A stretch of DNA of 64,000 nucleotides from Eledone cirrhosa (GCA_964016885.1 OZ024743.1:264182001-264246000); one strand, 5' to 3'. Numbered from the stretch's first letter, positions 3,463 through 64,000 are shown. Made by a program: numbers and translations. The notes: generated by a model not told the origin, from the letters alone.

Positions 3463-3652
3463 GGCGGTGGATTGGCAGTATCGGTAGAGAGTCGGACGCC
3501 ATGCTTTCCAGCATAGTTACGTCCCTTTATGGTCTGAGTTCAAATCCCGTCGAGGTTAACTTTGCCTTTCATCCTTACGGGGTCGATAAAATAAAGTACC
3601 AGTAATGTGCTGGGTAATTGCTGGCCTTGTGCCAAATGTAGAAACAATTATT
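3463..3652 (+). mobile_element. tRNA-derived SINE (abundant family 1), full length
   Basis: A box TGGCAGTATCGGT, B box GAGTTCAAATCC, central gttaactttgcctttcatccttacggggtcgataaaataaagtaccag, tail tagaaacaattatt. More than 15 copies in the window. Confidence 0.85.
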
Positions 3653-6002: not shown

Positions 6003-6381
6003 TGGCAGTATCGGTAGAGGGTCGGACACCATGCTTTCCAGCATAGTTACGTCCCTTTACGATCTGAGTTCAAATCCCGCCGAGGTTGACTTTGCCTTTC
6101 ATCCTTACGGGGTCGATAAAATAAAGTACCAGTAATGCACTGGGTAATTGCTGGCCTTGTGCCTAACGTAGAAACAATTATTAATTAACACAAGGCAGTG
6201 GATTGGCAGTATCGGTAGAGCGTTAGACACCATGCTTTGCAGATAGAGTTCTGACACCTTTACGTACTAAGTTCAAATTCCGCCGAGGTTAACTTTGCCT
6301 TTCATGCTTAAGGGGTCGATAAAATAAAGTACCAGTAATGCACTGGATAATTGCTGGCCTTGTTCCATAAGTAGGAACACA
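6003..6381 (+). mobile_element. Two tandem copies of SINE family 1
   Basis: Copies at about 6003-6182 and 6193-6381 match 3463-3652. Confidence 0.85.
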
Positions 6382-6587
6382 CTTTAATTAACACACTCCC
6401 TTGTGGTTAATAAAGAAAGCATTATTAATTAACACACTATATATTTCTGACGAGTTCTGTAAAATATTAAGGGTAATTGGTGAAAATAGTTTAATGCTTT
6501 ATGTGTAATTTAGTATGATGGTATTTAAGATTGAAATAACTTGAGTTATGGCAAGACTAATTTGAGGATATTAATAGAATGACCACA

Positions 6588-7324: not shown

Positions 7325-8527
7325 GCGCACACACACATGCACACACACATACACACACACACATATCAGTGTATGTATATATATATATTGTATTTGTAGA
7401 TTTAATAAGATATATATGAAATGAAAATGCAAATGCACGGCATACAAAGACAGTTATACATAGTAAATGAATGCACCGTGGACGAGTTAATGACGTAATG
7501 GGAGATGTATTATGCACTAAGAAATTTAGTAATAAATAATTCTTTTATTTCAACTCTATTTGAACTCACAGCACAAAGTGACTTAGTTAATTACTATATT
7601 GTCTTATCTCTGTTCCAGTGATTCCGCCCCCTATCTCTTTTGTGATAATACTAGTCACGCTACTTTATTTAATTTCACAACATATAGCTTGTGTTCGATA
7701 GGGAATCAGAGGAGAGTGAAGATAGGAGAGACAGGCAGAGAAATAGAAATACAGAGAGAGAGAGAAAAAAAGAGAGTGAGAAGAATAGAGGGAGAGAGAA
7801 ACAGAAAGAGAGAAATAAGTTGACTTTACACTTATCTCTTACTGTTTTTGTGGAAGATTTAATTCTCAGATCTTTTTATCCTTATCATTTCCAAATTTTG
7901 TTTCCTATTGTTTTCTTTTATTTCTGTATTTTATTCAGATCATTCCATTCCTGGATTTCAATTTTTTCGATTACTTTTCTCCATGTCTCATGTGTTAACC
8001 CATAAATGGCATCACACTACTTTATTGAGAGTTTCACGAATTCAATGGCTTTGACAATTCTATAAAAATTGAATTAAATAATGTTGATTTAATTGTTTGT
8101 TTCTAATATAATATTGGATTTTCATCTTTTTCTTTGTGGTATTGTTTGCTCGTGTGTTAGATATTTTAAACACAGAGATAGAATTAGCGATCACTTTTCA
8201 TGAAAACTACTACATATTTCTTCCATTAATTACAAAAAACACTTTTTGTTTTAATATTATACTACATGAATAATATATTATTCAACACACGAACACACTC
8301 ACAAGCTCATATTCAATTCTTCAGACACATATAAAGATATAGACATGGGAAGCAGCTGTTTGTTAAAACATGTTATATTCAAGACATGAATGTCTTCAAT
8401 TTCATATTTATGATAAAATATTTTCCATATTTCTTTCTTCATCTTTTATAATTAATTTAGTACAGTAACGTTGCTATGCCTATAAAAGTTTAAATATTTT
8501 CTCGCTCTTATAATTCGAAAGAAATAA

Positions 8528-8942
8528 TGGTTTCTGATTTAGGCACAATGCCAACAATTTGGGGGAAAGGGAAAGTCGATTAAATCGACCCCAGTGCGTT
8601 ACTAGTACTTTATTTTATCGACCCAGTAAGGATGAAAGGCAAAGTTAACCTCGGCAGGATTTGAACTCAGATCATAAAGGGCCGTAACACGATACTGCAA
8701 AGCCTGGCGTCCGATCCTCTACCGATACTGCCAATCCACAATGGTTTCTGATTTAGGCTCAAGACCAACAATTTGGTGGGAGTGGAAAGTCAATTAAATC
8801 AACCACTTTGTGTTACGAGACTTTATGTTATCAACCCCGCAAAGCTAACCTCGACAGGATTTGAACTCAGAACGTAAAGAGACATAACTTTATGCCGCAG
8901 ATCATGTTGACCGATGCTCTATCGATATTGCTAATCCACCAC
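8528..8942 (-). mobile_element. Two tandem copies of SINE family 1
   Basis: Reverse-complement matches at about 8528-8740 and 8742-8942. Confidence 0.8.
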
Positions 8943-9443
8943 TGTTTACTGGTTTTGCTCCGTTTTTTAAATTTTTTATTTATTTTTATTTATTTATTTA
9001 TCTTTAGTAGGTAGAATCGTATAAAAACTGTAATTGGTAGAACAGTCACTACCAGACTTTAAAATATCTAACAATTAATTTATGGTTCGATCCACAGTCT
9101 TTTCACGGGTCTCGTATTTGTATTTTGATAAATCATTCATAATTAATTCAATTTTTGTTGTCGAACTCTATATATGATGGCAGCTTTATCCAATAAAGAT
9201 TTTAATGGATAACATAAATAAATGTATCTGTTAGTCACGAGTATGGGTCTGGTTGGTGTAGATTATTACGCAATATTGTCAATGTCGGTAATTATTGTTA
9301 CAGTCGCTGCTTATTGTTTATTCTTATGCAGCAATTGCGTATTATGAGAGCTGCAGATTGAAAACGACTGTCTCCCCAATAATGATAATTAGACCTAGTG
9401 TTTATTGCTGGCTTTGTTTTCGGAGTGTGTTATTTACGTCTAT

Positions 9444-11447: not shown

Positions 11448-11449
<2 letters not shown>

Positions 11450-11646
11450 CGAATGAAGTGTGGTAAGGAACCAGGTGGACCATAGCGCACCAGAGTACTC
11501 AATATTTAAGGTAGTAGAGTGTGTAATAGAAAAAAATGTTCAAGACCCCTACGGCAGAGCTCGAGCCGTTTCTACAGCTATTTCTGAACTGAAATAGCCG
11601 TCGAAACGGCTCGAGCTCTGCCGTCAGGGTCTTGAACATTTTCCTA
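11448..11646 (-). mobile_element. HHR-tail element family D, fold-back copy 1
   Basis: Homologous to 20055-20240 and 45985-46198. Hairpin 11527-11646 is centred on HHR stem II. Abuts (TA)n. Confidence 0.75.
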
Positions 11647-13014: not shown

Positions 13015-13098
<84 letters not shown>

Positions 13099-13230
13099 GT
13101 AATCTGAGTTTTTTGAATATTAATAATAACATTCGATTCGTTTGCAATTATGCAAACAAGCCTCAATATTATAGCCATGTCAGTAGAATGAACCCTTCTT
13201 TCTTGCTCTTGTGTTGGCATGTGAACAGAA

Positions 13231-13274
13231 CTGCAGACACTAATGTTTCTGGGTATCACCCTTCATCAGTACAG
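13231..13274 (-). ncRNA. Type I hammerhead ribozyme (family A)
   Basis: Minus strand: CTGTA-CTGATGA-aGGGTgatACCCa-GAAA-CAttagTG-TC^TGCAG. Intact core, stems I-III and GUC site. Confidence 0.85.
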
Positions 13275-13408
13275 CTCACTGTTCACCTGCCAAACTGTCA
13301 GAGCCAGTGAAAATATATGCTATTTTCAAAAATACACAGTGACTGATCGGCCTGATTTGCATGTTAGCAGATTGGCTGATCAGTCAGATCTGCATATTAG
13401 CAGATCCA

Positions 13409-13447
13409 CTGATGAAGGGTGACACCTAGAAACATTAGTGTCTGCAG
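13409..13447 (+). ncRNA. Hammerhead copy at the inversion junction (5' stem I strand lost)
   Basis: CTGATGAagggtgacacctaGAAAcattagtgTCtgcag starts at the junction, with microhomology actgat. Confidence 0.7.
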
Positions 13448-13630
13448 TTCTGTTCACATGCTAACACAAGAGCAAGTATGAAGGGTTCATTCTACTGACA
13501 TGGCTATACAATTGAGGCTTGATTGCATAATTGCAAACGAATCGAACGTTATTAATATTCGAAAAACTCAGATTATATGTATTGTATTCAGCCATGTAGA
13601 GCAAAACATTTTCTTTTATATATATATATA

Positions 13631-18795: not shown

Positions 18796-18842
<47 letters not shown>

Positions 18843-19005
18843 AAATTTTCGCTCTACATGGCTGAATACAATAAATGTAATCTGAATTTTTCGAATATTA
18901 ATAACATTCCATTCGTTTGCAATTATGCAAACAAACCTCAATTTTATAGCCATGTGAGTAGAATGAACACTTCTTTCTTGATATTGTGTTGGCATGTGAA
19001 CAGAA

Positions 19006-19049
19006 CTGCAGACACTAATGTTTCTGGGTATTACCCTTCATCAGTACAG
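19006..19049 (-). ncRNA. Type I hammerhead ribozyme (family A)
   Basis: CTGTA-CTGATGA-aGGGTaatACCCa-GAAA-CAttagTG-TC^TGCAG on the minus strand. Confidence 0.85.
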
Positions 19050-19061
19050 CTCTCTGTTCGC

Positions 19062-19203
19062 CTGCCATACTGTTAGAGCGAGTGAAAATATATGCTATTT
19101 TCAAAAATACACAGTGACTGATCGGCCTGATTTGCATATTAGCAGGCCGCCTGATGAGTCAAATCTGCATATTAGCAGATCCACTGATCAGCCAGATTTG
19201 CAT
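19062..19203 (-). promoter_or_regulatory. Putative compact snRNA/U6-type promoter of family A
   Basis: Three 33-bp subrepeats, two with a perfect octamer (19130-19137, 19196-19203). On minus: TCACTGTG from 19117, TATAT from 19092, GGCAG from 19066, HHR core at 19044. Confidence 0.55.
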
Positions 19204-19340
19204 ATCAGCAGACGGGCCACCCAGTTTCCTGTATACGAGTGTTAAATGGCCGGGTTTGCCAAATTGAAATAAAAAAGAAAATGTTCACTCTACATGGCTG
19301 AATACAATAAATGTAATCTGAGTTTTTTGAATATTAATAA

Positions 19341-19460
19341 TTGTTTCTACTTTAGGCACAAGGCCAGCAATAACCCAGTGCATTACTGGTACTTTTATTT
19401 TATCGACCCCGTAATTATGAAAGGCAAAGTCAACCTCGGCGGGATTTGAACTCAGACCCT
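19341..19460 (-). mobile_element. SINE family 1 (5'-truncated) inserted in family A unit 2
   Basis: Reverse match to the SINE 3' half, with flanking taataa duplication. Confidence 0.8.
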
Positions 19461-19738
19461 AATAACATTCGATTCGTTTGAAATTATGCAAAGAAGCCTC
19501 AATTGTATAGCTATGTCAGTAGAATGAACACTTCATTTTTGCTCTTGTGTTGGCTTGTCAACAGAACTGCAGACACTAATATTTCTGGGTATCACTGTTC
19601 ACCTGCCAAACTGTCAGAGCTAGTGAAAATATCTTCTAAATAAAACTCAGATTACATTCATTGTATTCAGCCATGAAATGCGAACATTTATAGCATATAT
19701 TTTCACTAGCTCTGACAGTTTGGCAGGTGAACAGTGAG

Positions 19739-19782
19739 CTGTACTGATGAAGGGTGATAGCCAGAAACATTAGTGTCTGCAG
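19739..19782 (+). ncRNA. Type I hammerhead ribozyme (family A, inverted arm)
   Basis: CTGTA-CTGATGA-agggtgatagcca-GAAA-CAttagTG-TC^TGCAG, with one stem II mismatch. Confidence 0.8.
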
Positions 19783-19988
19783 GTCTGTTCACATGCCAAT
19801 ACCAGAGCAAGAATGAAGGGTTCATTCTACTGACATGGCTATACAATTGAGGCTTGTTTGCATAATTGCAAACGAATCGAATGTTATTATTAATATTCGA
19901 AAAAACTCAGATTACATTTATATATAATATATATATATATATATGTGTGTGTGCGTAATTTTATTTATATATATAAATATAATTACAA

Positions 19989-20054
<66 letters not shown>

Positions 20055-20059
<5 letters not shown>

Positions 20060-20240
20060 CACAGGTAAGACCCCGACGGCTGAGCTCAAGCCGTTTCGAC
20101 GTCCAGAATTGGCCGTCGAAACGGCTTGAGCTCAGCCGTCGGGGTCTTACTTGTTCCTATTACCCACTCTACTACCCTAAGTATTGAGTACTTTGGTGCG
20201 TTATGGTCCACCTGGTTCCTTACCACATTTCCTTCGTTAT
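20055..20240 (+). mobile_element. HHR-tail element family D, fold-back copy 2
   Basis: Hairpin 20055-20160. Right arm GAAA-CGGCT-tgagctc-AGCCG-TC^GGGG is the 3' half of an HHR. (TA)n on both sides. Confidence 0.75.
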
Positions 20241-22460: not shown

Positions 22461-22931
22461 GTTCTCCCTTAAATAAATATATGTACACACACATCCACCC
22501 ACACGCACACACATACACATACAAACACACATACACACACACACACACACATACCCCCTCCCACATATATATATATATATATATATATATCCCAGAAACC
22601 ATAGACAAAACTATAACCCTACTAACAAAAACCAAAGATCCCCGAACACAAGGCAGGACCTGATCCGCAGATCACAACCCACACAAAACCTATTCCAAAA
22701 CCGTAGACCCCTGCCCACACAGAGCCTGTTCCAAAACCGTAGATCCCAACCCACACAAAGGAACCAAATCTACAACCAGGACTATCAACAAACCGAACCT
22801 CAATACGTCCGAAACTTCTATACAAGACCACACAACAACAGAGGAAATACCATTAGATATAATAATACCAATGAAAAAACATTCCAGAAAAATCATTTTT
22901 TAGACCAAGGCTACAGGACTCACGACACCCG

Positions 22932-25201
22932 GTGGCACAAACCGATTTTGAAAAACCGAAAATAATTAACATTTCAAATACAAACCTCTCAGCCCAACAA
23001 GTAAAAATTCTCTCCAAAGGTCTGCAATTCACACCAACACCACAATACCCTAACCCCAACGAGATAAATGACGATATCTCACACTTCTGTAGAAAATTAC
23101 GTCTCACAGAGGAATTCTTTGACAAGGAGAATAACGACGAATCAATTGTACGGAATAAAAGCAGCTACAACCCAACAAAAGGTAGAAACAGAGTTCTGGA
23201 CAAATTTTGTGACCACATAGCTACCTTCCCATACCATGAACTACCGCAACCTAAACCCAAACCCAACACAAGTCGAAGGGAATGGGAGATTATCCATGAA
23301 CTAAAAAACAATACGGACATTGTAATTAAGGAAGCGGACAAGGGAAGTACTGTTGTCATTATGGAGGCTGAAAAATATAAAAATTCTATGTTCTCTCTCT
23401 TACAAAATACTAATTACTATGAAAGAGTAAAAAAACTACCAGCAATCAAAAATAATGACCAAATTAAACACACTGATTTATCGATACCAGGAAGACCTAA
23501 CTAAAAAGGAACGCGATTATTTAACAAATTTTGAATACAAAACCAGCAACCTTAACGGACTTCCGAAGATCCACAAATGTAAAATAATCAACGATGCCTG
23601 TAAACAATCCACCTCAGCCTGCGTGAACACACAATACCCCACAGACCTTAAATTAAGACCAATTGTAGCGGGCCCACAATGTGAAACACACAGATTGAGC
23701 AACTTTATAGACATACTACTGAAACCAATACTGAAACACATACCAAGCCTTGTAAGAGACGATCTGGACCTCTTAAACCACCTCCCCAAACATGTCAACA
23801 ACGACACTATTATTGTGTCTTTCGATGTAGTGAATCTCTACACAACGATCCCACACCAATACGGACTAGAAGCAATAGGATTCTGGCTAGAGAAATATCC
23901 CAATGAGATACCTGACAGAATAGAAAAAAGCTTCATCACCGAGGGATTAAAATTCATCCTACAGAACAACTTTTTTGATTTCGATGGCAATACTTACAAG
24001 CAAATATCGGGGACTGCGATGGGTACAAAAGCCGCTCCAACTTATGCCAACTTAGTCATGGCATACTTAGAAGTCCAGATATATGAACAGTCCAAATCAA
24101 AATACGGATTGAACTTCCACAAATATTTATCAGAGAATTGGAAACGCTACTTGGATGATTGCCTCATTCTTTGGTCCCACACACTCGACCAACTGAAGGA
24201 TTTCAAAAACTTAATAAACGGCATCAATAACCACATCCAATTCCCAATGGAATTCAGCCAAGATCAACTCCCATTTCTGGACATCTTAATCACAAAAAAA
24301 GACACAAATATCGAAACTGACATATACTACAAACCAACAGATTCCAAACAATATCTGCTATTCACCTCCAACCATCCAAAGCACATGAAGACGAACATTC
24401 CTTTTAACCTAGCAAGAAGAATTTGCACAATTGTCTCCAATTATGAAACGCGAAATAAAAGACTTCAAGAATTAAAGGAAATTCTACTCGAGAGAGAGTA
24501 CCCACTATTACTAATAAATAATGGAATAGAAAGGGCTAAAGCAATAGGCATTGATGAATTACGGAAACAGAAACAAATTCAAGGTACGTCCAATATTCTA
24601 TCATATATCTCAACACACAACCCAAGAAATGCGGAAGCTTACAACACTATTCACAATAACATCCCACTACTAAAACAAAACCCAAGAATGAAAAAAGCCC
24701 TTGAAAGACAAAATAATCAAAAGCAAAAGACAACCAAAATCACTGAAAACATTACTCACCAATGCCAAATTACCTACCACAAACCCACAACCAAGTATCA
24801 AAAAATGTGGTCGCTCTAATTGTGGAACCTGCACTCACCTCATTGAAGGCAACACGTATACATTTAAATCAGGACGAAATTTTACTGTAAAAAATCACTT
24901 CACTTGCTCATCAAAAAATCTACTTTATGCCATTAAATGTAAAGGATGCAATGAAGATTATATAGGACAAACTAAACTCACACTCAGAAACAGAATGACA
25001 GTTCATCGCCAACAATTATGAGATCCAACCACGAGACAGATACCACTAAGTGCATATCTAGACATTTGCGCAAGTAATAAGACACCCAAATTCCAAGTCT
25101 TCCCATTTTACCTTTGCGCTAACATTACAACAGAACAAATGCGAATAAATAAGGAAAATATGTTTATTCAAAAATATAGACCAACATTAAATAAGGTTTA
25201 A
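22932..25201 (+). pseudogene. PLE reverse transcriptase/GIY-YIG endonuclease, disrupted
   Basis: IINIS...LSKGLQFTPT, EADKG, LPKIHK, LRPIV, SFDVVNLYTTIP, QISGTAMGT, RYLDD, LPFLD, YYKPT, CGRSNCGTC linker, NLLYAIKC..C..YIGQT. Frameshifts near 23440 and 24705 and a stop at 25019. Confidence 0.92.
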
Positions 25202-25411
25202 TATACATTATGTCAACACCACAATATGACATACACACACACACATAACACCTTCTACTTTGGAAAATAAAAACCCGAACTAAATAAACCTTAACATACG
25301 TTTGCACTGGCAATACAACAGCAAACACGAAAAAGTAAGGAAAATATGTTCATTCAAAAATATTCCTACTAAAGGAATCACTTTCCTACACACACACATA
25401 CACACACACAC

Positions 25412-25446
<35 letters not shown>

Positions 25447-39834: not shown

Positions 39835-39992
39835 ACTACTGGTGCATTATTTTATCGACCCCTTAAGAATAAAAGGCAAAGTTAATCCCGCCGAGGTTAA
39901 CTTTGCCTTTCATCCTTACGGGGTCGATAAAATAAAGCCCCAGTAATGAACTGGGTAATTGCTGGCCTTGTGCCAAAAGTAGAAACAATTAT
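39835..39992 (+). mobile_element. SINE family 1 with inverted 5' fold-back
   Basis: ...aaaggcaaagttaatcccgccgaggttaactttgcctttc... Confidence 0.75.
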
Positions 39993-40797
39993 TTCTATTA
40001 TAACATTAATAACTTTATATAAATTACTGGCTAAAAAAAGTAACGTCACAAATATCATTTATGTTATCTAGGTTTATTTAACCTGAGTAGTAAGTAGTGC
40101 TCTCATCTGTTGCTGCCTAAGAAAAGCAAAGTTAAATAATTGAGAAATTTCATGAAACAAGTTTTTCTCCTTTTGTTTTCCAACAATCATTTTTTTAAAC
40201 CATGTGTATATCATTAAGTTATCAATTTGAATTACCAATTTCACCGTGATTATATTTCTGTAAAAACATTACCATTCATTAAAATAACTATTGTGCTTTC
40301 TTGATTGGTTTTTAGCTGTTAAGTTTTATTAGAATTTTACTAAATATTAAATAGTAACTCTCATTTTACGTGTATAGATTATCAGCATAAAATTATCCTA
40401 GAGACATTTTGACGTGTATTTAAATGTTCAAAACAAAAACCTAAGTTGGTTATGTAGAATGAACCAAGAATTGCGCGTGAAAAGTTTTTAATTTCTATTT
40501 AAAACACTCACTCGTGTAAACACTCACTCGTGTAAAAGCATATATGAATGATAACCAAATTATATTCCTGTAAATCAATAGCTAATCACTATCCATTTTT
40601 GAAATCAAAAATATTTTTATTAGCAACTGTCAATTTAAGCAATTGAAAATATGTTCATTTAAATCTATTGACAACGTATATATCTGTATCTATAGATTCA
40701 TAACGTAGAAAGTCTACATTCCACCGTTGATTTCTCACATTATAGTTAGCGGATAGTTGATTAACTCTACACTATATCGGATGAAATAAATGCCACG

Positions 40798-41498: not shown

Positions 41499-42543
41499 AT
41501 ATATATATATATATGTGTGTGTGTGTATTTCTGTGTGTGTTTGTGAGTGTGTGTGTGTGCGTGTGTGTGTGCGTGCGTGTGTGTGTGTGTATTTTTTGCA
41601 TTGGTAAGATCAGATAAGATAGATGAGACAGATCTGTCTTTTCTTCTTCAGGAGTGAAAATAAATAACAATGTATTGAACTTGCAATGGAAACACCTAAT
41701 TCGAAATTCCTCAACGATATAAAATTAGTTTTACTTTAGAACCTGATTTGAAAAATAATAGGTATCTCTATACAAATATTATTAAAATATATATGTGTGA
41801 AAATATTCTTAACACCATACATATAATTTTCTTCTATACCTGCACGGGTCGTTTGACTAACGAAAAATCTAAATATTTCCCAATCTTTCTCGTATAAATA
41901 ACTGAACCTACTGCCCTAAATATGTAGTAAATATTTTTTAAATTATTCCTGCTGTAACCAATTTGTAGTTTCATCATACTTTTCCCGAAGAAAAAAAAAC
42001 ACAATAAATTTACAACACAATAAATAAACAACAATAAATTTATACTTTTTTAACTTTGAAAATCTTATGTAAGATAAGCTAACATTGAACTTGAAATTTT
42101 AACTGCTTCTCTTAATGCTCCTTGTTTTGAATCCTCTCTTTTTCTTGATATTTGTCTTATGATATATATTTAATGTTATTTTATTATATACATTTCCCGA
42201 ATAGATACGGTTGGGATAATGCACCCATAAGGATGTAAATTTTTACCTGGTAATATCCAGTTTCTTCACAAATGGATACGATATTCTAATCAAGTTGAAA
42301 CTTTCGTAGAGATGCATAAATAAATAACATCTTATCATTGGTTTTCTTAACATTTGAATATATATATATTTATATATACATATATATATATATATAAAAG
42401 AAATAAGATTTCACTTCAAGCATAGCTTTATACAATTTGTATAAATATTTCGTATCTCCAAAGAAATACGGTTTTAGGAAGCCGTAGCTATGCAAACAGC
42501 GGGGGCTAACGCCCTCTGGTGATGTCAAGCATAAGCAAGGGGG

Positions 42544-42587
42544 ACCGTCCTGACGATGGCCAGTTAAGCCTGAAATGCATAGACGGT
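42544..42587 (+). ncRNA. Type I hammerhead ribozyme (family B, copy 1)
   Basis: ACCGTC-CTGACGA-tGGCcagttaaGCCt-GAAA-TGCA-TA^GACGGT, with palindromic stem III ATGCAT. Confidence 0.88.
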
Positions 42588-42782
42588 TGTCCCCCTTATT
42601 TCTGCTGGACATCACCAGAGGGCGTTAGCACCCCCCCCCCCCCGGTGTTTGCATAGCTACGGCTTCCTAAAACCGTATTACTTTGGAGATACGAAATATT
42701 TATACAAATTGTATAAAGTTATGCTTGAAGCGAAATCCTATTTCTGTTTTATTATAAGTTGAGCCAACTTATGCAGCTTCAT

Positions 42783-42857
42783 ATGCAAATGAGATTAATC
42801 ACCTCATTTACACAGGCGAGAAAACTTTATATTCTCGACTGTCTTCTAGTCCAGCAG
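42783..42857 (+). promoter_or_regulatory. Putative compact snRNA/U6-type promoter of family B
   Basis: ATGCAAAT 42783-42790, TCACCTCA from 42799, TTTATAT 42826-42832, AGCAG 42853, HHR core 42882. Confidence 0.55.
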
Positions 42858-42875
42858 TCACAAGCGGTGGGAGGG

Positions 42876-42919
42876 ATCGTCCTGACGAATGCCAGTTAAA
42901 CCTGAAATGCATAGACGGT
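42876..42919 (+). ncRNA. Type I hammerhead ribozyme (family B, copy 2)
   Basis: ATCGTC-CTGACGA-atgccagttaaacct-GAAA-TGCA-TA^GACGGT. Stem II is decayed. Stem I is extended by gtccagcag/ctgctggac. Confidence 0.75.
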
Positions 42920-43026
42920 GGTCCCCCTTGCTTCTGCTGGACCTCACGAGATGGCGTTAGCTCCCCGGTGTTTGCATAGCTACGGCTTCCTAAAACCTTA
43001 TTTCTTTGGAGAAACGAAATATTTAT

Positions 43027-43123
<97 letters not shown>

Positions 43124-43238
43124 GTACGAGGTGAGTTTTATTGTAGCACAATAAAGCAATGCAAATATCGGATAAGTAGCACTCTACAGTTTATAGGACT
43201 GGAGTATAAATAATATAAGATCAATGAGAATATAAGAT

Positions 43239-43293
43239 CTGATGAGAACGCAGATATCATCCCATGATGATATTTGTTTTTTAAATGCGCATA
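43239..43293 (+). ncRNA. Degenerate hammerhead in the Naiad pLTR
   Basis: CTGATGA-GAACGCAGATATCATC-ccat-GATGATATTTGTTTT-tTAAA-TGCGCA-TA. Long stem II, GAAA mutated to TAAA, palindromic stem III ATGCGCAT. Confidence 0.65.
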
Positions 43294-43504
43294 ATAAAAT
43301 ACTTGGAACTCTTTTAAACATCTTTTGATCTTATATTATTCACACTCCAGTCCTATAAACTGTAGAGCGCTACTTATCCGATATTTGCATTGCTTTATTG
43401 TGCTACAATAAAACTCACCTCCTACATTAACTTGCTCCTTGAATGTTTGAGCGCTAACTCTCATATAGGATACCTTTGATGGTCTCTCATTTTTCTTCTA
43501 TAAC

Positions 43505-45676
43505 ATGGATTATTACAACATAACAACTTCAATTAAAGACATTCCTATACCTGGTAAGTCTGAATTCACTTAGCTTCTGATTGAAAAAGCTGACTCTTTT
43601 GTGAGAAGGCTTTGGTGGATCGCTTTTTTCCATGATCTGCGCCAAAAAGGAAATTTCTATACTAAGGAACATAATAATTTTGATCATTTATTTAACTCTA
43701 GAAGAAATCCTCCTTCCAACAAAAATCTAGTGCAGTTTGAGGAATAATTAACTAATATTATAAGATGTCTTAAATTCAAGAGAAACACTTATAGAGGACA
43801 GGAGCACCTTATAAATCTCAGGAATACGATTTTGGACCTTAATTCCTCTAAAAATATCTCAGTCCACTCCGACAAAACTAATAATTTATATGGCGTATCT
43901 AAAGATAAGTATAATAACTTTATCCTTAAGGAACTAAGGAAGAATTATCGTAAAACTAACCATGACAATTTGGAATCTATAAACTTGGAAGCTTCTGAGA
44001 TTATGTCTAAACTTGGCATCGAGAAAAAGACCAAACCATTCTTCCCAAGACTCCGAGGATAAATCTCAAGGATCATAAAAGTAACTTTCGAACGGAACTG
44101 CCTGTTAGACTAATTTCCCCCTCTAAATCAGATCTGGGCGTTGTTAGTAAATCCATCGTGGATAGAATTATGCCACAGGTTCGTTCTAATTGCTCTATTT
44201 CTAACTTAAATTTATAGATTGGTACATCTGAAGTAATTGGCTGGTTCAATCACCTGAATAATAAAAACAAACAAAAATTTACTCAGTTTGACATTGCCAG
44301 TTACTATTCTTCTATTTCGCCTTCACTCATCAACAACGCTCTATATTTCGCATTTAATTATTCTGACATTACTACAGATGAACTTTACATCATTCTCACT
44401 GCAAGAAAAACTATCTTGGAATTCAACAATGAATATTGGACTAGAGCTGATACTTCCAATAATTTTGATATCACAATGGGTGCTTCCGATTCATCGCAAT
44501 TGACGGATTTGATTGGTATCTTTATTCTGAATTCTTTAAATCGGAAGATTCCTCAACTTCGTGGTGGAATTTATCTTTGACGATGCCCTTTTTACTGTCT
44601 TAAACTGTAACTTAGTTAACCTTAATATTATTAAGAACAATATACTTGATCTATTTAAGCTCCATAACCTTAAAATTGAATTTGATAACAATGTCAAACT
44701 AGCTAACTTCTTGGATATATCCCTTAATCTTGACACTTGGCTATATTACCCTTACCATAAAAACAATGAGAATCTAAATTATGTTAATTTTAAATCTAAC
44801 CACCCCACTAACGTTAAAAATGCTATAGTCAGTAATATTGAAAAAAGTATCTCAAATCTATCCTCTAATAAATTTATCTTCGACGCTAATGCCAATTACT
44901 ATAATAATGCGCTTTCCAAAGCCGGCTATCCTGATAAAATTAAATACAGTAAAGAAACCAATCATCGAAGGACTTATAGTAAAATAGTTAATTATGAACA
45001 TTCCAATAACTTAAATAAAAGACCTAGATACAAAAATATCATTTAGTATAATGCTCTTTTTCTCTATCTATCACTAATAATATTCTTAAACTATTGTTTA
45101 GGGCCTTAGATAAATGCTTCCCTCCCTCGCATATCTATAGTAAAATCTTTAACAAACATATAATCAAATTCTCTTATTCCACCACTTCCAACATCTCTAA
45201 CATTATCTCTAAACACAATAATAAAATATTAAGTAATAAATTACATCCATACAACACTGATCGTCATAATAATAGCAGTAGTAATCCCGACCTAGGTTAG
45301 ATTCAGTAAATTTAAATACGACGTCAAACGTAACTTCGTTGAATGTTCATAATACCAATCTAAATGAGGAACCTATAATTCCTATCGTAAATAACTTCTC
45401 CCATCCAATTCCTTCTATAAATAATACTAGGTCACTTGTTAATAACTCTGTTAATTTCTCTAATCGTAATTGTAATTGCCCAGTCAGAACTAAATGTCCT
45501 CTTAATAACCAATGTCTTGATAAAAACTTAGTGTATGAATGTAAGGTTATAACTGGTACTAATTCTTTTACCTATTTCGGTTCCACTTCCCCTTCCTTTA
45601 AAGCAAGAATTTATAATCACAAATCGTCTTTTAAATACCAACTTAAAAGAACTAACACAGCACTCTCGGAACTTTA
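43505..45676 (+). pseudogene. Naiad-type RT/GIY-YIG polyprotein, multiply disrupted
   Basis: SIKDIPIP...LIEKADSFVRRLWW, LKDHKSNF...VRLISPSKSDLG, QFDIASYYSSI, FDITMGASD, IFDDAL, NFLDISLNL, SNHP, CNCPVRTKCPLNNQCL..NLVY, YFGST..FKARIYNH. Confidence 0.88.
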
Positions 45677-45948
45677 ATTCTATAATAAATAGACGTACGG
45701 ATTTATTTTCGCTCTGCTTGCATAAATCCCATAGAACATTCCATAAAGTATACAGCTTTTATATGTTTTACAAATATACCCATCTATATGAAATCAAGTC
45801 ATTAGAGATATACTTCACTGCTTTACGATCGTTTCTAGATGGTTATAATACATTGTATTTATACTCAGTTATTGATCTATGTAAGTTTACAAACTATCAG
45901 ATGGAGAGAATATTTACTTACATGCATATTACCAGCTGTTTGCAAAAG

Positions 45949-45984
<36 letters not shown>

Positions 45985-45987
<3 letters not shown>

Positions 45988-46198
45988 CAAGTAAGACCCC
46001 GACGGCTGAGCTCAAGCCGTTTCGACGGCTAATTCTGTGAATTCACTAATTCGGCTAATTCACAGAATTAGCCGTCGAAACGGCTTGAGCTCAGCCGTCA
46101 GGGTCTTAATTGTTCCTATTGCCCACTCTACTACCCTAAGTATTGAGTACTTTGGTGCGTTATGGTCCACCTGGTTCCTTACAACATTTCCTTCGTTA
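45985..46198 (+). mobile_element. HHR-tail element family D, fold-back copy 3
   Basis: Hairpin 45985-46115, GAAA 46077-46080, GTC^ 46097-46099. (TA)n on both sides. Confidence 0.75.
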
Positions 46199-46377: not shown

Positions 46378-46593
46378 TATACATATATATAATATGTATA
46401 TACATATATATATATATATGTATACACACATATATATATATATGTATGTATATACATACATATATACATATATATATATGTATATACATACATATATACA
46501 TATATATATATACATATATATATATGTAAGTATGTGTGTATACGTACATACATATATGTATACAGACGTACAGTAGCATGCACATATATATAA

Positions 46594-46706
<113 letters not shown>

Positions 46707-46874
46707 TACATACATATACATACAGGTACACATACATATATGCACGTATCAGTTTAGCAGACGCTTATTATAAGGCCGCTTTGTTCGTTTGTAAACAAAC
46801 TGAACAGACTGAATTTTTATGCCGTACGGTGTTAAGGCAACCACGTCACCTTTTTTTTCAACACTGACACAGGA

Positions 46875-46917
46875 ACGATGTACTAGTTTCAAGCTTGTTA
46901 GCTATCATCAGCACCGT
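46875..46917 (-). ncRNA. Type I hammerhead ribozyme (family C)
   Basis: Minus strand: ACGGTG-CTGATGA-tAGCTaacaAGCTt-GAAA-CTAG-TA^CATCGT, with palindromic stem III ACTAGT. Confidence 0.88.
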
Positions 46918-46925
46918 ATACCCAT

Positions 46926-46999
46926 CTGCCAGATAGTTGAACGTTCGAAAGTATATACTTTCCTTATGAAAATTAACGGCTGAGCAGCCTAATTTGCAT
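46926..46999 (-). promoter_or_regulatory. Putative compact snRNA/U6-type promoter of family C
   Basis: On minus: ATGCAAAT 46999-46992, TCAGCCGTT from 46983, TATATA from 46957, GGCAG from 46930, HHR core 46911. Confidence 0.55.
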
Positions 47000-47383
47000 A
47001 TCGAGTGAGCTAAGTCGGTCAGACATACTGAAAACGATGAGTTGAAAAAAAATGAAAACGAAATTTCATTTCTCACTCTTAGTACGGCACTTACTTAAAT
47101 GTAAGTATGTGTGTATACGTACATACATATATGTATACAGACGTACAGTAGCATGCACATATATATATATATATACATATATATATACCTAACAAGCTTG
47201 AAACTAGTACATCGTTCCTGTGTCAGTGTTGAACAAAAAGGTGACGTGGTTGCCTTAACACCGTACGGCATAAACATTCAGGCTGTTCAGTTTGTTTACA
47301 AATGAACAAAGCGGCGTTATAATAGGCGTCTGCTAAACTGATACGTGCATATATGTATGTGTACCTGTATGTATATGTATGTA

Positions 47384-47462
<79 letters not shown>

Positions 47463-47639
47463 GTGCATGCTACTGTACGTCTGTATACATATATGTATGT
47501 ACGTATACACACATACTTACATTTAAGTAAGTGCCGTACTAAGAGTGAGAAATGAAATTTCGTTTTCATTTTTTTTCAACTCATATATATATATATAGAA
47601 ATATATATATATACATATATATTACATATATATATGTAT

Positions 47640-47770: not shown

Positions 47771-47979
47771 ATTAGAAAGAGAATAGTTTTCACCGTATTT
47801 TTTTTACTAAAGAATTGTTTTAGTCTGATAATGGGGTTTAGAACCGTCAGATAAATGGAAAAAGATGAGTATTGATGTACATCAATACTCATATTTTTCC
47901 ATTTATCTGAGGGTTCTAAACCCCATTATCAGACTAAAATATTTCTTTAGTAAAATAAAATACGGTGAAAGCTATTCTA

Positions 47980-47987
<8 letters not shown>
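47771..47987. repeat. Spacerless palindrome of about 217 bp between (TA)n tracts
   Basis: Arms of about 108 bp centred on attgatgt|acatcaat, with few mismatches. Confidence 0.9.
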
Positions 47988-52484: not shown

Positions 52485-53686
52485 TATATATTATAAAGAA
52501 AACGAAAAATCAGTGATGCATCTGGACTTAGTTTATTTCGTGTTACAAATGTTTCGCCGGCATGTAGCTCGAATCATGGTCCTTGTATGGATCTGGCTGA
52601 TTCTAATTCTGCGAGTTCTTTGAGACACGGATGTTATGTCCGGAGCAAATTTTATCACTGGGGTGTCATCATCAAAACAACACCCTCAAAAAACCCTCTT
52701 TCCACTGTTGTCATGCCATTGGCTGTTTTTACTCCACGTCATCACAAGTTCTGGTCAGTATCTGCTGCCACACGGTTCATCAACCATTTTCCGTCTGACA
52801 CATTTCAATGGAGTCATGCTGGGTTCAGTACTTCACACGTTTGCTCACATTTCAGGGTAAGCACCCACACATACTAGAATAAACACATAATAACACACAC
52901 ATATTCAGACATATACCTAATTATGCATTCACACTCGTACGTCTACATGCACAAACACCCACACGGCCACATACATACATCGCAGTATATATACTCACAC
53001 ACCCTCTCTCCCTCACTCCCATAGACCCAGTCACACACACTTGTTGATACATGCCGCCACGAGCCTTCAGACTGTTCTGTATCAATTGGGTAAGCATGTT
53101 CTATTCAAACGTACACATATATACATACACATGCGCGCACAAGTGTGTGTGACTGGGTCTATGGGAGTGAAGGAAGAGAGGGTGTGTGAGTATATATACT
53201 GCGATTTATGTATGTGGCCGTGTGGTTGTCTGCGCATGTAGACGTACGAGTGTGAATGCATAGATAGGTGTATGTCTGAATATATGTGTGTTATTATGTG
53301 TTTATTCTAGTATGTGTGGGTTATTACCTGAAGTGTGAGCAAACGTGTGAAATACTGAACCCAGCATGACTCCATTGAAATGTGTCGGACGGAAAATGGT
53401 TGATGAACCGTGTGGCAGCAGATACTGACCCGAACTTGTGATGACGTGGAGTAAAAACAGCCAATGGTATGACAAGAGTGGAAAGAGGATTTTTTGAGGG
53501 TGTTGTTTTGATGATAACACCCCAGTGATAAACTTTGCTCCGGACATAACAGCCGTATCAGAAAGAACTCGCAGAAGTAGAATCAGCCAGATCCATACAA
53601 GGACCATGACTCGAGCTAAATGCCGGCGAAACATTTGTAACACGAAATAAACTAAGTCCAGATGCATCACTGATTTTTCGTTTTCT

Positions 53687-53697
<11 letters not shown>
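52485..53697. repeat. Inverted duplication of about 555 bp with a spacer of about 95 bp; PLE-tail-like
   Basis: 52485-53043 vs 53140-53697, with dispersed mismatches. The right arm ends cgaaac...aataaa...ttttcttta-(TA)n. Confidence 0.88.
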
Positions 53698-54117: not shown

Positions 54118-54749
54118 TATAATAACATATATATATATAATTACACACACATATATATATATATATATATGCATACATATATAAACATCTACCCACACAT
54201 ATATACTCGCACACATACACATAAACATACGTATACATATATACATACATATATACATACATACATAAACACGTACATATACATATACATAGACACACAT
54301 CCACACACACATATATATATATACACACACATGTATATATAAATATATAATATACACCCACACATACACACACACACACACACGCGCGCATATATATATA
54401 TTAACAAAAATAAAGAATTGTTCAGTTTTTGTATACATCGCAAAAGAATGACTTTCAGAAGTATCTTTAATCTATAGAATATATTTCACTTGTTTACATT
54501 TTATATGTAATCACTCTGTTTTTGTCGAGATTTTGTGGGGATTTTTAAATAATATTTTACTTTTTTTTTATCCTAATATTTTTCAACTGATATTCTTTTT
54601 CAAATGATATTCTTTTTAATGGTTTTCAATGATATTTTGAAATATAACTTTTTTGTGATAATTTTGATAATGTTTCTAAATATGTTTATGATGTCTGTAA
54701 TAGTATATTTCGCTATATAGAATTTAACACATTCATCGATGTAGATAAT

Positions 54750-54938
54750 TGTTTCTACGTTTGGCACAAGGCCAGCAATTATCCCAGTGTATTACTGGTG
54801 CTTTATTTTATCGACCCCGTAAGGATGAAAGGCAAAGTTAACCTCGGCGGGATTTGAACTCAGAATGGCAAGGGCCGTAACTCTATGCATCAAAGCATGG
54901 CATCCAACCCTCTCCCGATACTGCCAATTCACCGCCCT
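54750..54938 (-). mobile_element. SINE family 1, full length with 15-bp TSD
   Basis: TSD atcgatgtagataat at 54735-54749 and 54939-54953. Confidence 0.9.
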
Positions 54939-55711
54939 ATCGATGTAGATAATACTATCTAAATACATATAAAAGAATTCTCATCTTTGAAAACATCTAA
55001 TATAAAATACCTTATAATCATTTAAAAAATAATATATTACAGTTTTCTACTTATATTTCGCATATATCTTAATTGTATAATTCTTTAAAAGTAAATTCTA
55101 GAATTAAATGACAAATGTAACATACTTATTCTAATTAAGAAACATTGGAGTTATCCTTTATAATGTAACACGCTTATACATTCCTTCTACATAAAAACTA
55201 AACTTTACATGAATATTTATTTTCGTTGACTTAATAAATTTTTTGTCAATGTTTCCTATCTTGATTGAACTATCTGAATGCACAAAATAATCTTCTCAAA
55301 TAAAATTTATAGCTACGTCCTTTTCTTAACTATATATTGAAAATGTAAACACAAAATTCTTCGTAACATATATATAAATATTTAATTTATCTATCTAGTG
55401 AAAATAACAACATATATACTCACCAAAAATGTTTATATAAATACTTATATAAATAACCCGTTGTAATATAATAAACTAAATATCATCTATATAATATTAT
55501 AACTCATGATTTGAATAGATCCAATAATTTGTTGTATATCTCAATTAAAAAAAATTAAATTGGTATTCTACCACTTCAACATATTCTTAACTCTCATATT
55601 ATTTTATAGATACTACCAAAATATATGATTATATAATTAAATAATTAAATATAATTACATCACTCTCTTTACACCATCACTGATATGATCCATACAATTT
55701 TATCTTAATAA

Positions 55712-55900
55712 TTGTTTCTACGTTTGGCACAAGGCCAGCAATTATCCCAGTGTATTACTGGTGCTTTATTTTATCGACCCCATATGGATGAAAGGCAAAG
55801 TTAACCTCGGCGGGATTTGAACTCAGAATGGCAAGGGCCGTAAATGTTTGCTGCAAAGCATGGCGTCAGACCTTCTACCGATACTGCCAATCCACCGCCC
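55712..55900 (-). mobile_element. SINE family 1, full length
   Basis: Near-identical to 54750-54938. Flanks ttatcttaataat and ttatgttaataat. Confidence 0.88.
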
Positions 55901-56339
55901 TTATGTTAATAATTGTATCTACTTTAGGCACAAGTTAATAATAATAGTGTATTTCTAACTATAATTTTTTCTTATAATCACTCATTAAATTTTCTTACAC
56001 CATAATATTAATATTAACCTCTCTTTTTTCCTTTTATAAATTATCCTTATAAATTATCCTAATAATTATTTAAATTTACCTAGCTTCTAAATATAACGAT
56101 CTTTTTTCAGCCTTACGTTTCAACCTCATTAACATATACATACTAAGGATTTGAAATTTTTCTTTCACTATCCAAACCGAACCTGAACCGATAAGGTCTG
56201 GTTTCTTGGGTATGTCAACATTTATGAAACAAATTTTGTATTTTATCTGATGAGAACGAACCAACATTTTTGTACCCTTGAAATATATATAATAAAATAA
56301 ATATGGTTTTATAAATATAGCTTCCATTTATTAATATCA

Positions 56340-56384: not shown

Positions 56385-59433
<3,049 letters not shown>

Positions 59434-60992: not shown

Positions 60993-61372
60993 CGTAAAAT
61001 AAGAAAATTATAAAATTAACTTACTTACTTAATTAGTAACTATGTGGTTCAATGCATGGGATTGCAGAACAATAATATGAGAGTCGTAAAATAAGAAAAT
61101 TATAAAATTAACTTACTTACTTAAATTTCACTCCCAACTAATTAGTTTCTGAAAGGGATTAAACGTACTATCCGAAGAGCGCACGGAGAAGCCTTTCGCT
61201 ATCAGGGAAGTCTATTCTCCCGTGCGCTCTTCGGATAGTACGTTTAATCCCTTTCAGAAACTAATTAGTTGGGAGTGAAATTTAAGTAAGTAAGTTAATT
61301 TTATAATTTTCTTATTTTACGTCTCTCATATTATTGTTCTGCAACCCCATGCATTGAACCACATAGTTACTA
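60987..61372. repeat. Fold-back hairpin (arms about 160 bp) with partial tandem duplication, in (TA)n
   Basis: 61033-61190 vs 61213-61372. 60987-61032 repeats 61079-61124. Confidence 0.88.
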
Positions 61373-61429
61373 AGACAAAACCTATATATTTGCTAACATA
61401 AGTATGCATCTGTGTATATATATGTTACT

Positions 61430-61549: not shown

Positions 61550-64000
61550 ATACCTCCGCCTTTCTCGACACCATCCTCGCACCTCTCGTCACCACCCTCC
61601 CCTCCCACATCTCTGACACCAACTAAGCCCTTTGTCTGTTCGACTCCCTCACTTTCCCACCTGGCCCCACCCCCTCCTCTTCACTCTAGTCATTAAGTCA
61701 CTTTAGACCGTCATCCCCACGCTGACGGCCTACGCGCCCTCCGGCACTACCTCGACCTTCGCCCCTCCCTCATCCCCTCCACCCCACCCTCATTTGCCTC
61801 GCCCAGCTGGTCCTCACCCATAACTGTTTCTCCTTCTTGGGTGAGTTTTACCAGCAGGTAACTGGGGTATCAATAGGCACAAGAATGGGCCCCAACTATG
61901 CCATCCTTTTCGTTGGCCATGTTGAGGCCCAAATATTTGCCCAATACACCGGTCCCACGCCCGAACTTTACGGTCGGTACATCGACGACTTCATCGAAGC
62001 CACGACCATCACCCGTGAACAGCTCGACTCCTTTCTCTCCATCCTCTGCTTCTTCCACCCCTCCCTCCAATTCACCACCTCTATCTCCACCACCCACGTC
62101 CACTTCTTGGATATCTCCGTCGCCATGGACCCCTCCCACCACTCCCGCGTCATCTTCCCCTTATTCAAACCCACCGACCCCCATTCCTACCTAGACTTCA
62201 CCTCCTCCAACCCAACCCTCACCAAACACTCCATTCCCTACTCCCGAATCATCCGGATCCGCCGCTTCTGCAGCCGAGATGCTGACTTCGAGACTCAGCC
62301 ATATCTCCCGGAGTGGTTACCTCCTTCCCTCGTCCACGCCACCCTCACTCGCGCCCACGTAGCCCACCGCTCTACCGCCCTCACTCAACGCCCTCGCACC
62401 CCCAACCGCCATCTCCCTTTCCCCCTCACCTACTACCCATGCACCATATCCATCCCCTGCACCATCCTCCGCCTTTTCCGACGCCTCCAGTCGGACCCCT
62501 CCACCTCCCCATCTTCCTATCCCCACCATCTCCTTTAAACACGCGCGCAACCGTCGCAACCTCCTCGTCCGCAACTCTCTACCCCTCAATCACCGTTCCT
62601 GCGTCACCTCCGCTGCACCTCCTTCAACCTCGTATACGGACTTCGCTGCACGGCGTGCAGCGCAACCTTCGTCGAACAGAGCGGACGTCACCTGGCGGAT
62701 TAGTTCACGGAGCACCTCGGAGATATTCATCTCGGCGGGTGTTCCGCCATCGCCCGCCACTTTGGTTCCTCTGGACATTCCGCCCACCAGCTAACGGTCT
62801 GTGACCTGATCCAATGTCATGGGACCCCCGCCACCCGCCTTACGGTCGAGCAACACACCATCTTCACCCTACAGACCCCCCCCCCTGGCCTGAACTCCCG
62901 ATCCCTCTTCCTTTAGCCTTCGACCTTGCCCCTCCCCTATACACACCCCCTTCTAACACCACTAAAACCTTCCTAATTTTCACCGTCCCCTCCACTTTCA
63001 GCTACCCTCCTACCCCCTTGGCCCACCCCACAAATAATACTACTAACACCCACCACCCTCTTGGCCCATCCACAACTAATAATACTAACACCCCACCCCT
63101 CCCCATATCACATGCGCACCCACACCCTCACATGCACACCCCCACCAATACATATATACACACATTCACACTATTAACACACCCTACTGCCACCATTAAC
63201 CCCCACCCACACATCCACATCCGACCACCCCACCTCTAATAATACTAAACATCCCCCAACCCACTTCCCCCTCACCACACACACACACGAACACACACCT
63301 TCACACATACACTCACCCGCACTCACGTACACACCGATACAATACCCACTCTACACCCACACTATCAACATTAACCGCCACTCACACACCCGCATTCAAC
63401 CCCCCCCCCCAATAATAGTAACACCCATTCTAGTAACACACACTCATACCCAAACACGCACACACAGAGTACATTACACTCACTGTCCGCAGCCCCTTCT
63501 TTCTCTCTCCCTCACTCCGCACTACCGACACTCATCCCACTAACACGTCCACTAATATACACACAAACCCCCCACTAACCCTAACCCTAACCCTCTTCCT
63601 CAACCTTTCACACATACCCATCCCCTCCCTTGTCCGCCGCACCTCCGCACACAGGTACACATATTTCCCACCACATACAGACCATCTCTAACACCTGTCC
63701 GTCTGCCTCCTCCCTACACTACCTGCTTGTCACCTTCTTACTGCTATCTCTACCTCCCTCCCCCAACAATCGTCCTGCCTTCACCCTCTGACCACTTTCT
63801 GTTGCTCGCGCACCCCACAACTCTCTACTTCCTCAATATTATACCTAGTATTCTACACCACCGGCCCACCACTCCAGTCATCCACCTTGCTATACTCGGA
63901 ATTTTCAACATCAATTCCTAAACTTTGCGGAAAAACATCGAACAACAGAACAAACGCTTACACTATTTTCGCATACACATAATCATACATCCACACCACA
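61550..64000 (+). mobile_element. Second Neptune-type PLE (C-rich strand), 5'-truncated and decayed; 3' UTR appears to run off the window
   Basis: [84 protein letters not shown] (GIY-YIG). Coding relic spans about 61550-62910. Confidence 0.85.

Follow-up and report, generated by a model that had tools for sequence, protein, structure and literature searches.

A hammerhead-bearing, non-coding repeat family with PLE-type insertion marks in the octopod Eledone cirrhosa

Metazoan non-LTR retrozymes have been described as non-coding units of 150-450 bp with a GC content below 50%, in which a canonical type I hammerhead recurs in successive units and the predicted circle pairs with itself, leaving the ribozyme helices free, and which co-occur with Penelope-like elements (PLEs; PMC7229834; bioRxiv 10.64898/2026.07.22.740005). 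From that co-occurrence, together with phylogeny, the same two sources proposed PLEs as the movers of retrozymes, and circularization by a host ligase has been established for the retrozymes of axolotl and mussel (PMC7229834). In the axolotl element HHR_Amex1, helix III consists of one pair plus a palindromic tetraloop, and the ribozyme cleaves poorly as a monomer but well in dimeric form (PMC7229834). The insertions of PLEs are marked by a partial tandem, an inverted 5'-truncated copy, a one-end tail of 30-40 bp, and a bias toward microsatellites (PMC8557442). Specifically, the tail has been explained by two RT start sites inside the RNA, at AT-rich targets (PMC11167929), and the minimal PLE hammerhead has a helix II of 7-8 bp and a helix I of 4-5 bp (PMC4209133). 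Non-autonomous PLE derivatives with head-to-tail insertions have also been reported, in Chlamydomonas (PMC8557442).

Herein, we describe a repeat family, family B, from Eledone cirrhosa, one copy of which lies in a window of 64,000 nt (the whole stretch of DNA analyzed; GCA_964016885.1 OZ024743.1:264182001-264246000). Family B shares with metazoan non-LTR retrozymes all of the features listed above, namely unit size, GC content, non-coding character, PLE co-occurrence, successive type I hammerheads, and a self-paired predicted circle. It departs from them in that the locus is a dispersed 1.5-mer with an inverted head, a one-sided tail, and a (TA)n target, and in that the family carries a promoter-like cassette. 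With EN+ PLEs it shares the partial tandem, the inverted 5'-truncated head, the tail at one end, the microsatellite target, and a type I hammerhead upstream of the tail (PMC8557442, PMC11167929, PMC4209133), whereas it has no RT or GIY-YIG frame, its hammerhead is canonical, and its tail measures 42 nt rather than 30-40 bp. Its unit size also matches those of HHR_Amex1 and newt satellite 2 (~330 bp), and like HHR_Amex1 it has a helix III of a single pair under a palindromic tetraloop, a form that calls for a dimer; these are likenesses of description only, and family B differs from the axolotl and newt units in its invertebrate host, its ATGCAT palindrome, its AUA triplet, and its TATA-like box. 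We found no inverted heads or tails in the main texts of PMC7229834 and the 2026 preprint, the supplements of which may differ, and, among the papers listed, none on cephalopod retrozymes, although supplements of retrozyme papers could list cephalopod families. Judged on sequence features, family B qualifies as a non-LTR retrozyme in every testable respect except long arrays.

The family unit and its ribozyme

A sequence-only reading of the window had proposed that two hammerheads, 332 nt apart, define a retrozyme monomer. Both cores stand, with CUGACGA starting at 42550 (HHR1) and 42882 (HHR2), GAAA present in each, and a spacing of 332 nt. The cleavage positions it had placed after A42581 and A42913 likewise agree with our analysis, both being N17 and both cores having an AUA triplet, as does the palindromic stem III (ATGCAT at 42575 and 42907). 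The extended stem I that it had named is found at HHR2 alone, GTCCAGCAG occurring a single time, at 42849; in self-alignment, the 5' arm of HHR1 is an inverted copy of downstream sequence. Contiguous stem I pairs number seven in HHR1 and six in HHR2, and stem II forms three of its four pairs in HHR1 (U.U at the base) and two of four in HHR2, where the broken pairs are at 42890 and 42900. Cores combining a stem I of at least 6 pairs with a palindromic stem III of at least 6 nt occur five times in the real window and in none of 100 Markov resamples of the 60,467-nt masked window. Rfam returned no match at gathering score in the whole window, which lowers the case for library membership and leaves the structural reading unaffected. 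In form, both are canonical type I hammerheads rather than minimal PLE ones, having a helix II of 4 bp and a helix I of 6 bp plus an extension. The claim that the unit has no ORF was confirmed, the longest ATG frame in the circularized monomer being 42 aa on the plus strand and 34 aa on the minus strand. We also considered, and rejected, an autonomous PLE identity for the unit, which has no RT/GIY-YIG ORF and no frame above 42 aa.

Within the window, sequence and BLAST searches found no second copy of family B, and nhmmer gave weak matches only, to two further hammerhead families described below (family C, E 0.042; family A, E 4.5), and none to a PLE. A metagenome scan with the family B core gave no match. 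Outside the window, four of the nine sequencing runs listed were compared with one period, 42707-43029 (six of the nine contain part of the stretch, with no RNA run listed among these), and pieces lying on this period amounted to 3,378 contigs in run X1, 36 in X4, one in X5, and 1,795 RAD reads in X7, the RAD reads sampling few loci. By identity, the X1 contigs fall into 395 at 99% or above, 774 at 95-99%, 1,311 at 90-95%, and 898 below 90%, which is a count of contigs and not a copy number. The pieces leave no part of the period uncovered, and five contigs and 130 reads contain a joint that closes it, leading from 43029 back to 42708 through a single intervening letter; the family period is therefore ~323 nt. 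The 332 nt of the sequence-only reading is correct as the length of the unit at this locus, and not as that of the family, the locus copy having a 9-nt C-run expansion. Because no piece on the period exceeds 161 nt, arrays longer than 1.5 units, none of which appears among the pieces, are something we infer. Family B is a multicopy, non-coding family with a unit of ~323 nt.

The family majority has G at 42890 (98% of X1 depth) and at 42900 (99%), along with C at 42877 and T at 42920; with these letters, stem II is 4 bp long and has a 7-nt loop, and stem I is 6 bp long and is followed by a bulge. Stem II variants covary, with A at 42891 accompanying T at 42901 (28 and 27 contigs) and G at 42889 accompanying C at 42903 (13 and 6); in the consensus of 35 contigs, GAAC/GUUC occur in phase and make three compensatory pairs, although this variant may be a single subfamily and thus one event. 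No conserved core base and no stem III position is hit among 40 of the 115 variant rows, and position 7 is variable. On these comparisons, the family ribozyme is a canonical type I hammerhead with compensatory changes in stem II. The majority circle is predicted to fold at -108.2 kcal/mol (z -7.92; 0 of 100 shuffles as good) with stems I and II formed, and in the majority tandem the double-hammerhead fold is predicted to lie 2.8 kcal/mol above the minimum. Two results from other systems weigh against activity: when four triplets were compared in a viroid hammerhead, cleavage was slowest with AUA (PMC1636495), and only one of nine predicted Xenopus retrozymes cleaved in vitro (bioRxiv 10.64898/2026.07.22.740005).

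Anatomy of the insertion

Self-BLAST and alignment resolve the locus into a 150-nt inverted head followed by 1.5 sense units, the whole set within (TA)n (Table 1). The sense copy, 489 nt long, ends at 43029; the head extends 42 nt beyond the end of the right arm, so that a tail is present at the left end only. The head is evident as a palindrome spanning 42396-42748 and as an inverted match of 42438-42546 to 43029-42920 at 92%, and it differs from the family majority by three substitutions in 112 nt. The direct match, of 42541-42706 with 42873-43029, is at 86%, and GGGAC at the junction is its overlap with the inverted match, which reaches as far as 42546.

Table 1. Features of the family B locus (positions in the window; unit positions, given with a plus sign, are counted from the cleavage site)
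Feature	Position	Strand	Remarks
(TA)n tract, left half of target site	42358..42395	.	Period-2 repeat at 42358-42396 (Tandem Repeats Finder)
Inverted head, antisense copy of unit ~+8 to +158	42396..42545	-	Self-BLAST, alignment
One-end tail, 42 nt, matching 42707-42748	42396..42437	-	Ends at family long 3' end, T-run then TA repeats
Microhomology GGGAC, 5 nt, junction of head and 5'-truncated sense copy	42541..42545	.	Inside HHR1 stem I
HHR1, type I hammerhead, C3 at 42550, predicted cut after A42581	42544..42587	+	U.U mismatch at stem II base
Unit between the two predicted cuts, 332 nt in locus copy, non-coding, 43% GC	42582..42913	+	
C-run expansion, +9 nt, private to locus copy	42630..42643	+	Alignment; 9-nt gap versus majority
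Octamer ATGCAAAT, 99 nt upstream of HHR2 C3	42783..42790	+	First element of candidate internal promoter
TATA-like box, TTTATA in locus copy	42826..42831	+	TATATA in 99% of X1 depth
HHR2 with native extended stem I (GTCCAGCAG at 42849 pairs with CTGCTGGAC at 42934)	42849..42942	+	C3 at 42882, predicted cut after A42913
GCAG, candidate start, 28 nt after first base of TATA-like box	42854..42857	+	Inferred; families A and C share this spacing
Right arm, direct repeat of +1 to +116	42914..43029	+	Ends at short 3' end
(TA)n tract, right half of target site	43030..43121	.	Target-site duplication indistinguishable

Read from this arrangement, the inverted 5'-truncated head, the one-sided 42-nt tail, and the (TA)n on both sides are PLE insertion marks. 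Some of them are seen in other copies as well. Among the matches listed, pieces run into AT-rich DNA at 42745-42752 in 21 contigs of X1 and in 119 and 250 reads of X7, which is the position of the outer end of the head at this locus, and opposite-strand joints at varied places, one contig each, point to inverted heads in other copies.

The segment from +1 to +116 is present three times at the locus, with three private substitutions in the head, three in the first sense copy, and seven in the right arm. As no derived change is shared among them, a circle and a linear multimer both fit as templates. Six of the seven private substitutions of the right arm (42914-43029) are transversions, and its excess may stem from conversion between the paired arms or from an assembly error.

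A promoter-like cassette and its surroundings

Upstream of HHR2, the family B unit holds an octamer, a TATA-like box, and a candidate G start, an arrangement that recurs in families A and C, neither of which has a BLAST match to family B. In all three, ATGCAAAT stands 88-99 nt ahead of C3, an AT-only hexamer follows ~35 nt later, and GCAG lies 28 nt past the first base of the hexamer, just before stem I; from the end of the octamer to GCAG there are 62-64 nt. In family B, TATATA is supported by 36,422 of 36,692 in X1 depth at row 42827, and no variant hits the octamer among 40 of the 115 variant rows. The octamer-TATA-GCAG pattern, which was defined after seeing the data, has four matches in the window, all four ahead of family A, B, or C cores. 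The probability of the octamer falling in a given 15-nt slot is 0.0007, any common 8-mer arose in 16 of 200,000 random triples, and exact octamers number nine in the window versus 5.5 expected. Common descent could be the source of the shared cassette, but the spacers have diverged and the boxes have not. Two family A cores, at 13409 and 19744, are without the cassette, both being 5'-truncated or rearranged just upstream.

A comparable promoter already described is that of H1, a compact type 3 Pol III promoter with an octamer, a Staf site, a PSE, and a TATA box in 84 bp (PMC11340601). The cassette resembles it in having an octamer and a TATA-like box less than 100 bp from a candidate G start, with the first T-run ~220-265 nt downstream. 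It differs from the H1 type in that the family octamer is only ~35 nt before the TATA-like box and in that we recognized no PSE common to the three families, only TCA being shared in the interval. Past the candidate start, at least four T in a row are first met at or beside the long 3' end in each of the three families, whereas avoidance of earlier T-runs is not significant in any of them (shuffle P 0.42, 0.33, and 0.24 for A, B, and C); the upstream half of A and C contains several T4-T8 runs. We found no literature on octamer promoters in retrozymes, to which supplements of retrozyme papers may add promoter notes, and no paper on a mollusc promoter among those listed. In a 1994 study, the newt satellite 2 promoter was reportedly found to include an octamer. 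That promoter is cited as internal and of the snRNA type for Pol II (PMC2220036; also PMC2114352), and metazoan retrozymes, according to a review, seem to be without promoters (PMC7761336).

A metagenome scan for an octamer with a hammerhead core, a pattern that required the octamer and hence says nothing on enrichment, returned at least 114 loci; 14 of 114 are hammerhead-like, in eight clusters, and among the matches listed none of these 14 has the full cassette or a second core. Thirteen metagenome contigs (L001, L011, L025, L051, L059, L065, L068, L076, L079, L086, L090, L103, and L104) hold type I hammerheads in which an additional U sits at the base of stem II and most palindromes are of the ACATGT type, and in four (L001, L051, L065, and L079) an inverted repeat surrounds the hammerhead core, resembling PLE heads.

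The window itself is rich in related repeats. Family A (13097-13617, 18837-19340, and 19460-19921; minus-strand cores at 13269 and 19044) has a canonical type I hammerhead with a 3-bp stem III, a GUC triplet, and a period of ~436 nt, together with inverted heads and 33-nt repeats that each contain an octamer or near-octamer; its two 3' ends are ~35 nt apart, the long one like that of family B in having a T-run and then TA repeats. Family C (46526-47582) has a minus-strand hammerhead at 46911 with the palindrome ACTAGT and the octamer-TATA-GCAG cassette. Its inverted head extends beyond the cleavage site, and its unit, with a period of 575 nt in the window copy, contains a (TA)n tract. Further hammerhead-like cores, none with an octamer cassette, lie at 56247(+), 59536(-), 441(-), 53863(+), 38636(+), and 51791(-). 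Those at 56247, 59536, and 441 resemble PLE minimal hammerheads in their AT palindromes and the length of their stem II regions, and the first two face each other across an inverted repeat with 1-kb arms (56392-59364). Long palindromes between microsatellites (52492-53691, 61033-61373, 47773-47985, and 771-1475) are probably PLE-type inverted heads. A third small repeat family (11448-11646, 20057-20238, and 45985-46197) forms a hairpin of ~100-130 nt adjoining (TA)n. A SINE-like repeat of ~200 nt has more than ten dispersed copies (3449-3654, 6002-6395, 8526-8955, 19333-19462, 39837-39999, 54742-54938, 55697-55934, and others), one of them inserted in a family A locus; ARAGORN found no tRNA gene in the window.

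PLEs are present as well. Of nine frames, that at 23431-24816 is the only one that Pfam names with a useful E-value (RT, RVT_1); it has 830 relatives, many with RT and GIY-YIG, and its best named relative is an Octopus bimaculoides protein at 74%. It belongs to a PLE-type remnant at 22590-25415, with a 462-aa RT frame between (TA)n tracts, which is 31% identical (E 1e-21) to another PLE-type RT remnant at 61726-62538. Immediately downstream of the family B locus, a broken PLE occupies 43121-45950, the C-terminal piece of which resembles GIY-YIG clusters (0.94-0.96); BLASTP of 44218-44577 against the RT at 23431-24816 gave nothing. Between family B and any PLE of the window, BLAST and nhmmer found no shared sequence.

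Mobility, circles, and alternative readings

We consider it probable that family B is a PLE-mobilized, non-autonomous, hammerhead-bearing retroelement of the non-LTR retrozyme type, and we lean, less firmly, toward its making circles. Multi-unit source copies would be transcribed from the octamer-TATA cassette of a preceding unit or by read-through. As suggested by the predicted structure and by the axolotl retrozymes, two hammerheads would pair through the palindromic stem III, cut after AUA, and release monomers, which a host ligase would circularize. Going by the scars, the RT/GIY-YIG protein of a PLE would nick (TA)n DNA and reverse-transcribe either an uncut multimer or a circle. From one of two start sites, separated by 42 nt, it would continue across both cleavage sites, stop 9 nt upstream of the core, and switch strand at the stem I microhomology, yielding an inverted head, 1.5 units, and a one-sided tail. 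Crossing both cleavage sites would require either that the multimer be uncut or that the circle be read through more than once.

The first alternative retains the PLE and gives up the stable circle: linear uncut multimers would serve as templates, circles would be rare or absent, and the cassette would give mostly short transcripts that start near 42854, are cut once, and stop at the first T-run. We regard this as unlikely, although it agrees with the in vitro finding that hammerhead cleavage is dispensable for PLE insertion and that uncut RNA is the main substrate (PMC11167929), and with a first T-run that is Pol III terminator-like and sits at the long 3' end in all three families. However, taken alone, the lack of earlier T-runs has no statistical significance; shuffles of the whole circle are predicted to fold far less well than the circle itself, in which the two ends pair; and the short transcript would lack the cassette, yet the copies carry it.

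A second, improbable alternative takes the locus for a pseudo-LTR (pLTR) remnant of an autonomous PLE, the 1.5 units being a chance partial tandem of its terminus. The tiling of the whole period by pieces that close on themselves, without a fixed break, argues against it, as do the lack of any frame above 42 aa and a helix II of 4 bp versus 7-8 bp in PLE minimal hammerheads (PMC4209133), the PLE-type cores of the window having long stem II regions. In its favor, the insertion scars are those of PLEs (PMC8557442), retrozymes have been proposed to derive from pLTRs (bioRxiv 10.64898/2026.07.22.740005), and 338 further loose ends, beyond the matches listed, could include an ORF junction.

A family-level retrozyme is distinct from the stronger proposal, made in the sequence-only reading, that the locus itself is transcribed across both hammerheads and yields a 332-nt circle. 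The former part is upheld, the family being multicopy, non-coding, ribozyme-bearing, and self-paired as a predicted circle; the latter we judge very improbable. All conserved bases are kept in both cores, U.U at the base of helix II is tolerated in the axolotl HHR_Amex2 (PMC7229834), the HHR2 lesions could be assembly errors, and a transcript from 42530 is predicted to close the monomer helix (P 0.82) and to pair the stem III palindromes (P 0.70). Even in this transcript, however, HHR2 stem II stays unformed. When 42400-43029 is folded as a whole, the 5' half of the monomer is predicted to be taken up by the head. The closing helix and HHR2 stem II then both have P 0.0, and the double hammerhead comes out 50.6 kcal/mol less stable than the minimum. 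Moreover, the only cassette is downstream of HHR1 and hence cannot transcribe both cores. The locus copy differs from the majority at 16 of 323 sites, nine of which break majority pairs, about as random changes do, while four keep pairs and three are unpaired. Its circle is predicted at -86.0 kcal/mol (z -3.45; 0 of 100 shuffles as good), and the majority with 16 random changes averages -92.2 (sd 6.8), 25 of 150 such sequences being as poor as the locus copy; as -86.0 is within this range, the decay looks neutral. Because HHR2 stem II is broken and the head would sequester the 5' half of the monomer, we take the locus copy for a decayed one that, in these models, is an unlikely source of circles. 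Junction-spanning reads, which the sequence-only reading had put forward as a check, match genomic DNA at 42913/42914 and thus would look alike whether they came from a circle or from a linear tandem transcript.

A MITE-like DNA transposon with terminal inverted repeats and a TA target, or a fold-back assembly artifact, is scarcely credible: the head and right arm do form inverted repeats around the element, with TA flanks, but the supposed inverted repeat recurs inside the element, the two ends are offset by 42 nt, 11 of 162 sites are mismatched between the arms, and the opposite-strand joints of other copies are at varied places.

Returning to a PLE-mobilized family B, we tentatively offer, as a possibility that we hold short of even, that octopod retrozymes are self-promoted PLE parasites, in which the upstream octamer-TATA promoter in each unit would fire into the next unit. 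A transcript with one hammerhead would not include such a promoter; to rebuild the promoter, ribozyme, and 3' end together in a new copy, reverse transcription would thus have to copy a multimer or go round a circle more than once.

The retrozyme as such is ordinary, and the locus copy is probably dead. Its interest lies in what it adds to the proposed partnership of PLEs and retrozymes: in family B, PLE insertion scars are seen directly on a retrozyme, and its two defined 3' ends are candidate RT start sites. The three-part promoter candidate common to three families bears, in turn, on how retrozymes are transcribed. If the self-promoter reading is true, it would explain why such elements are circular or tandem, and it would connect a retrozyme of an invertebrate with newt satellite 2 and its snRNA-type promoter.
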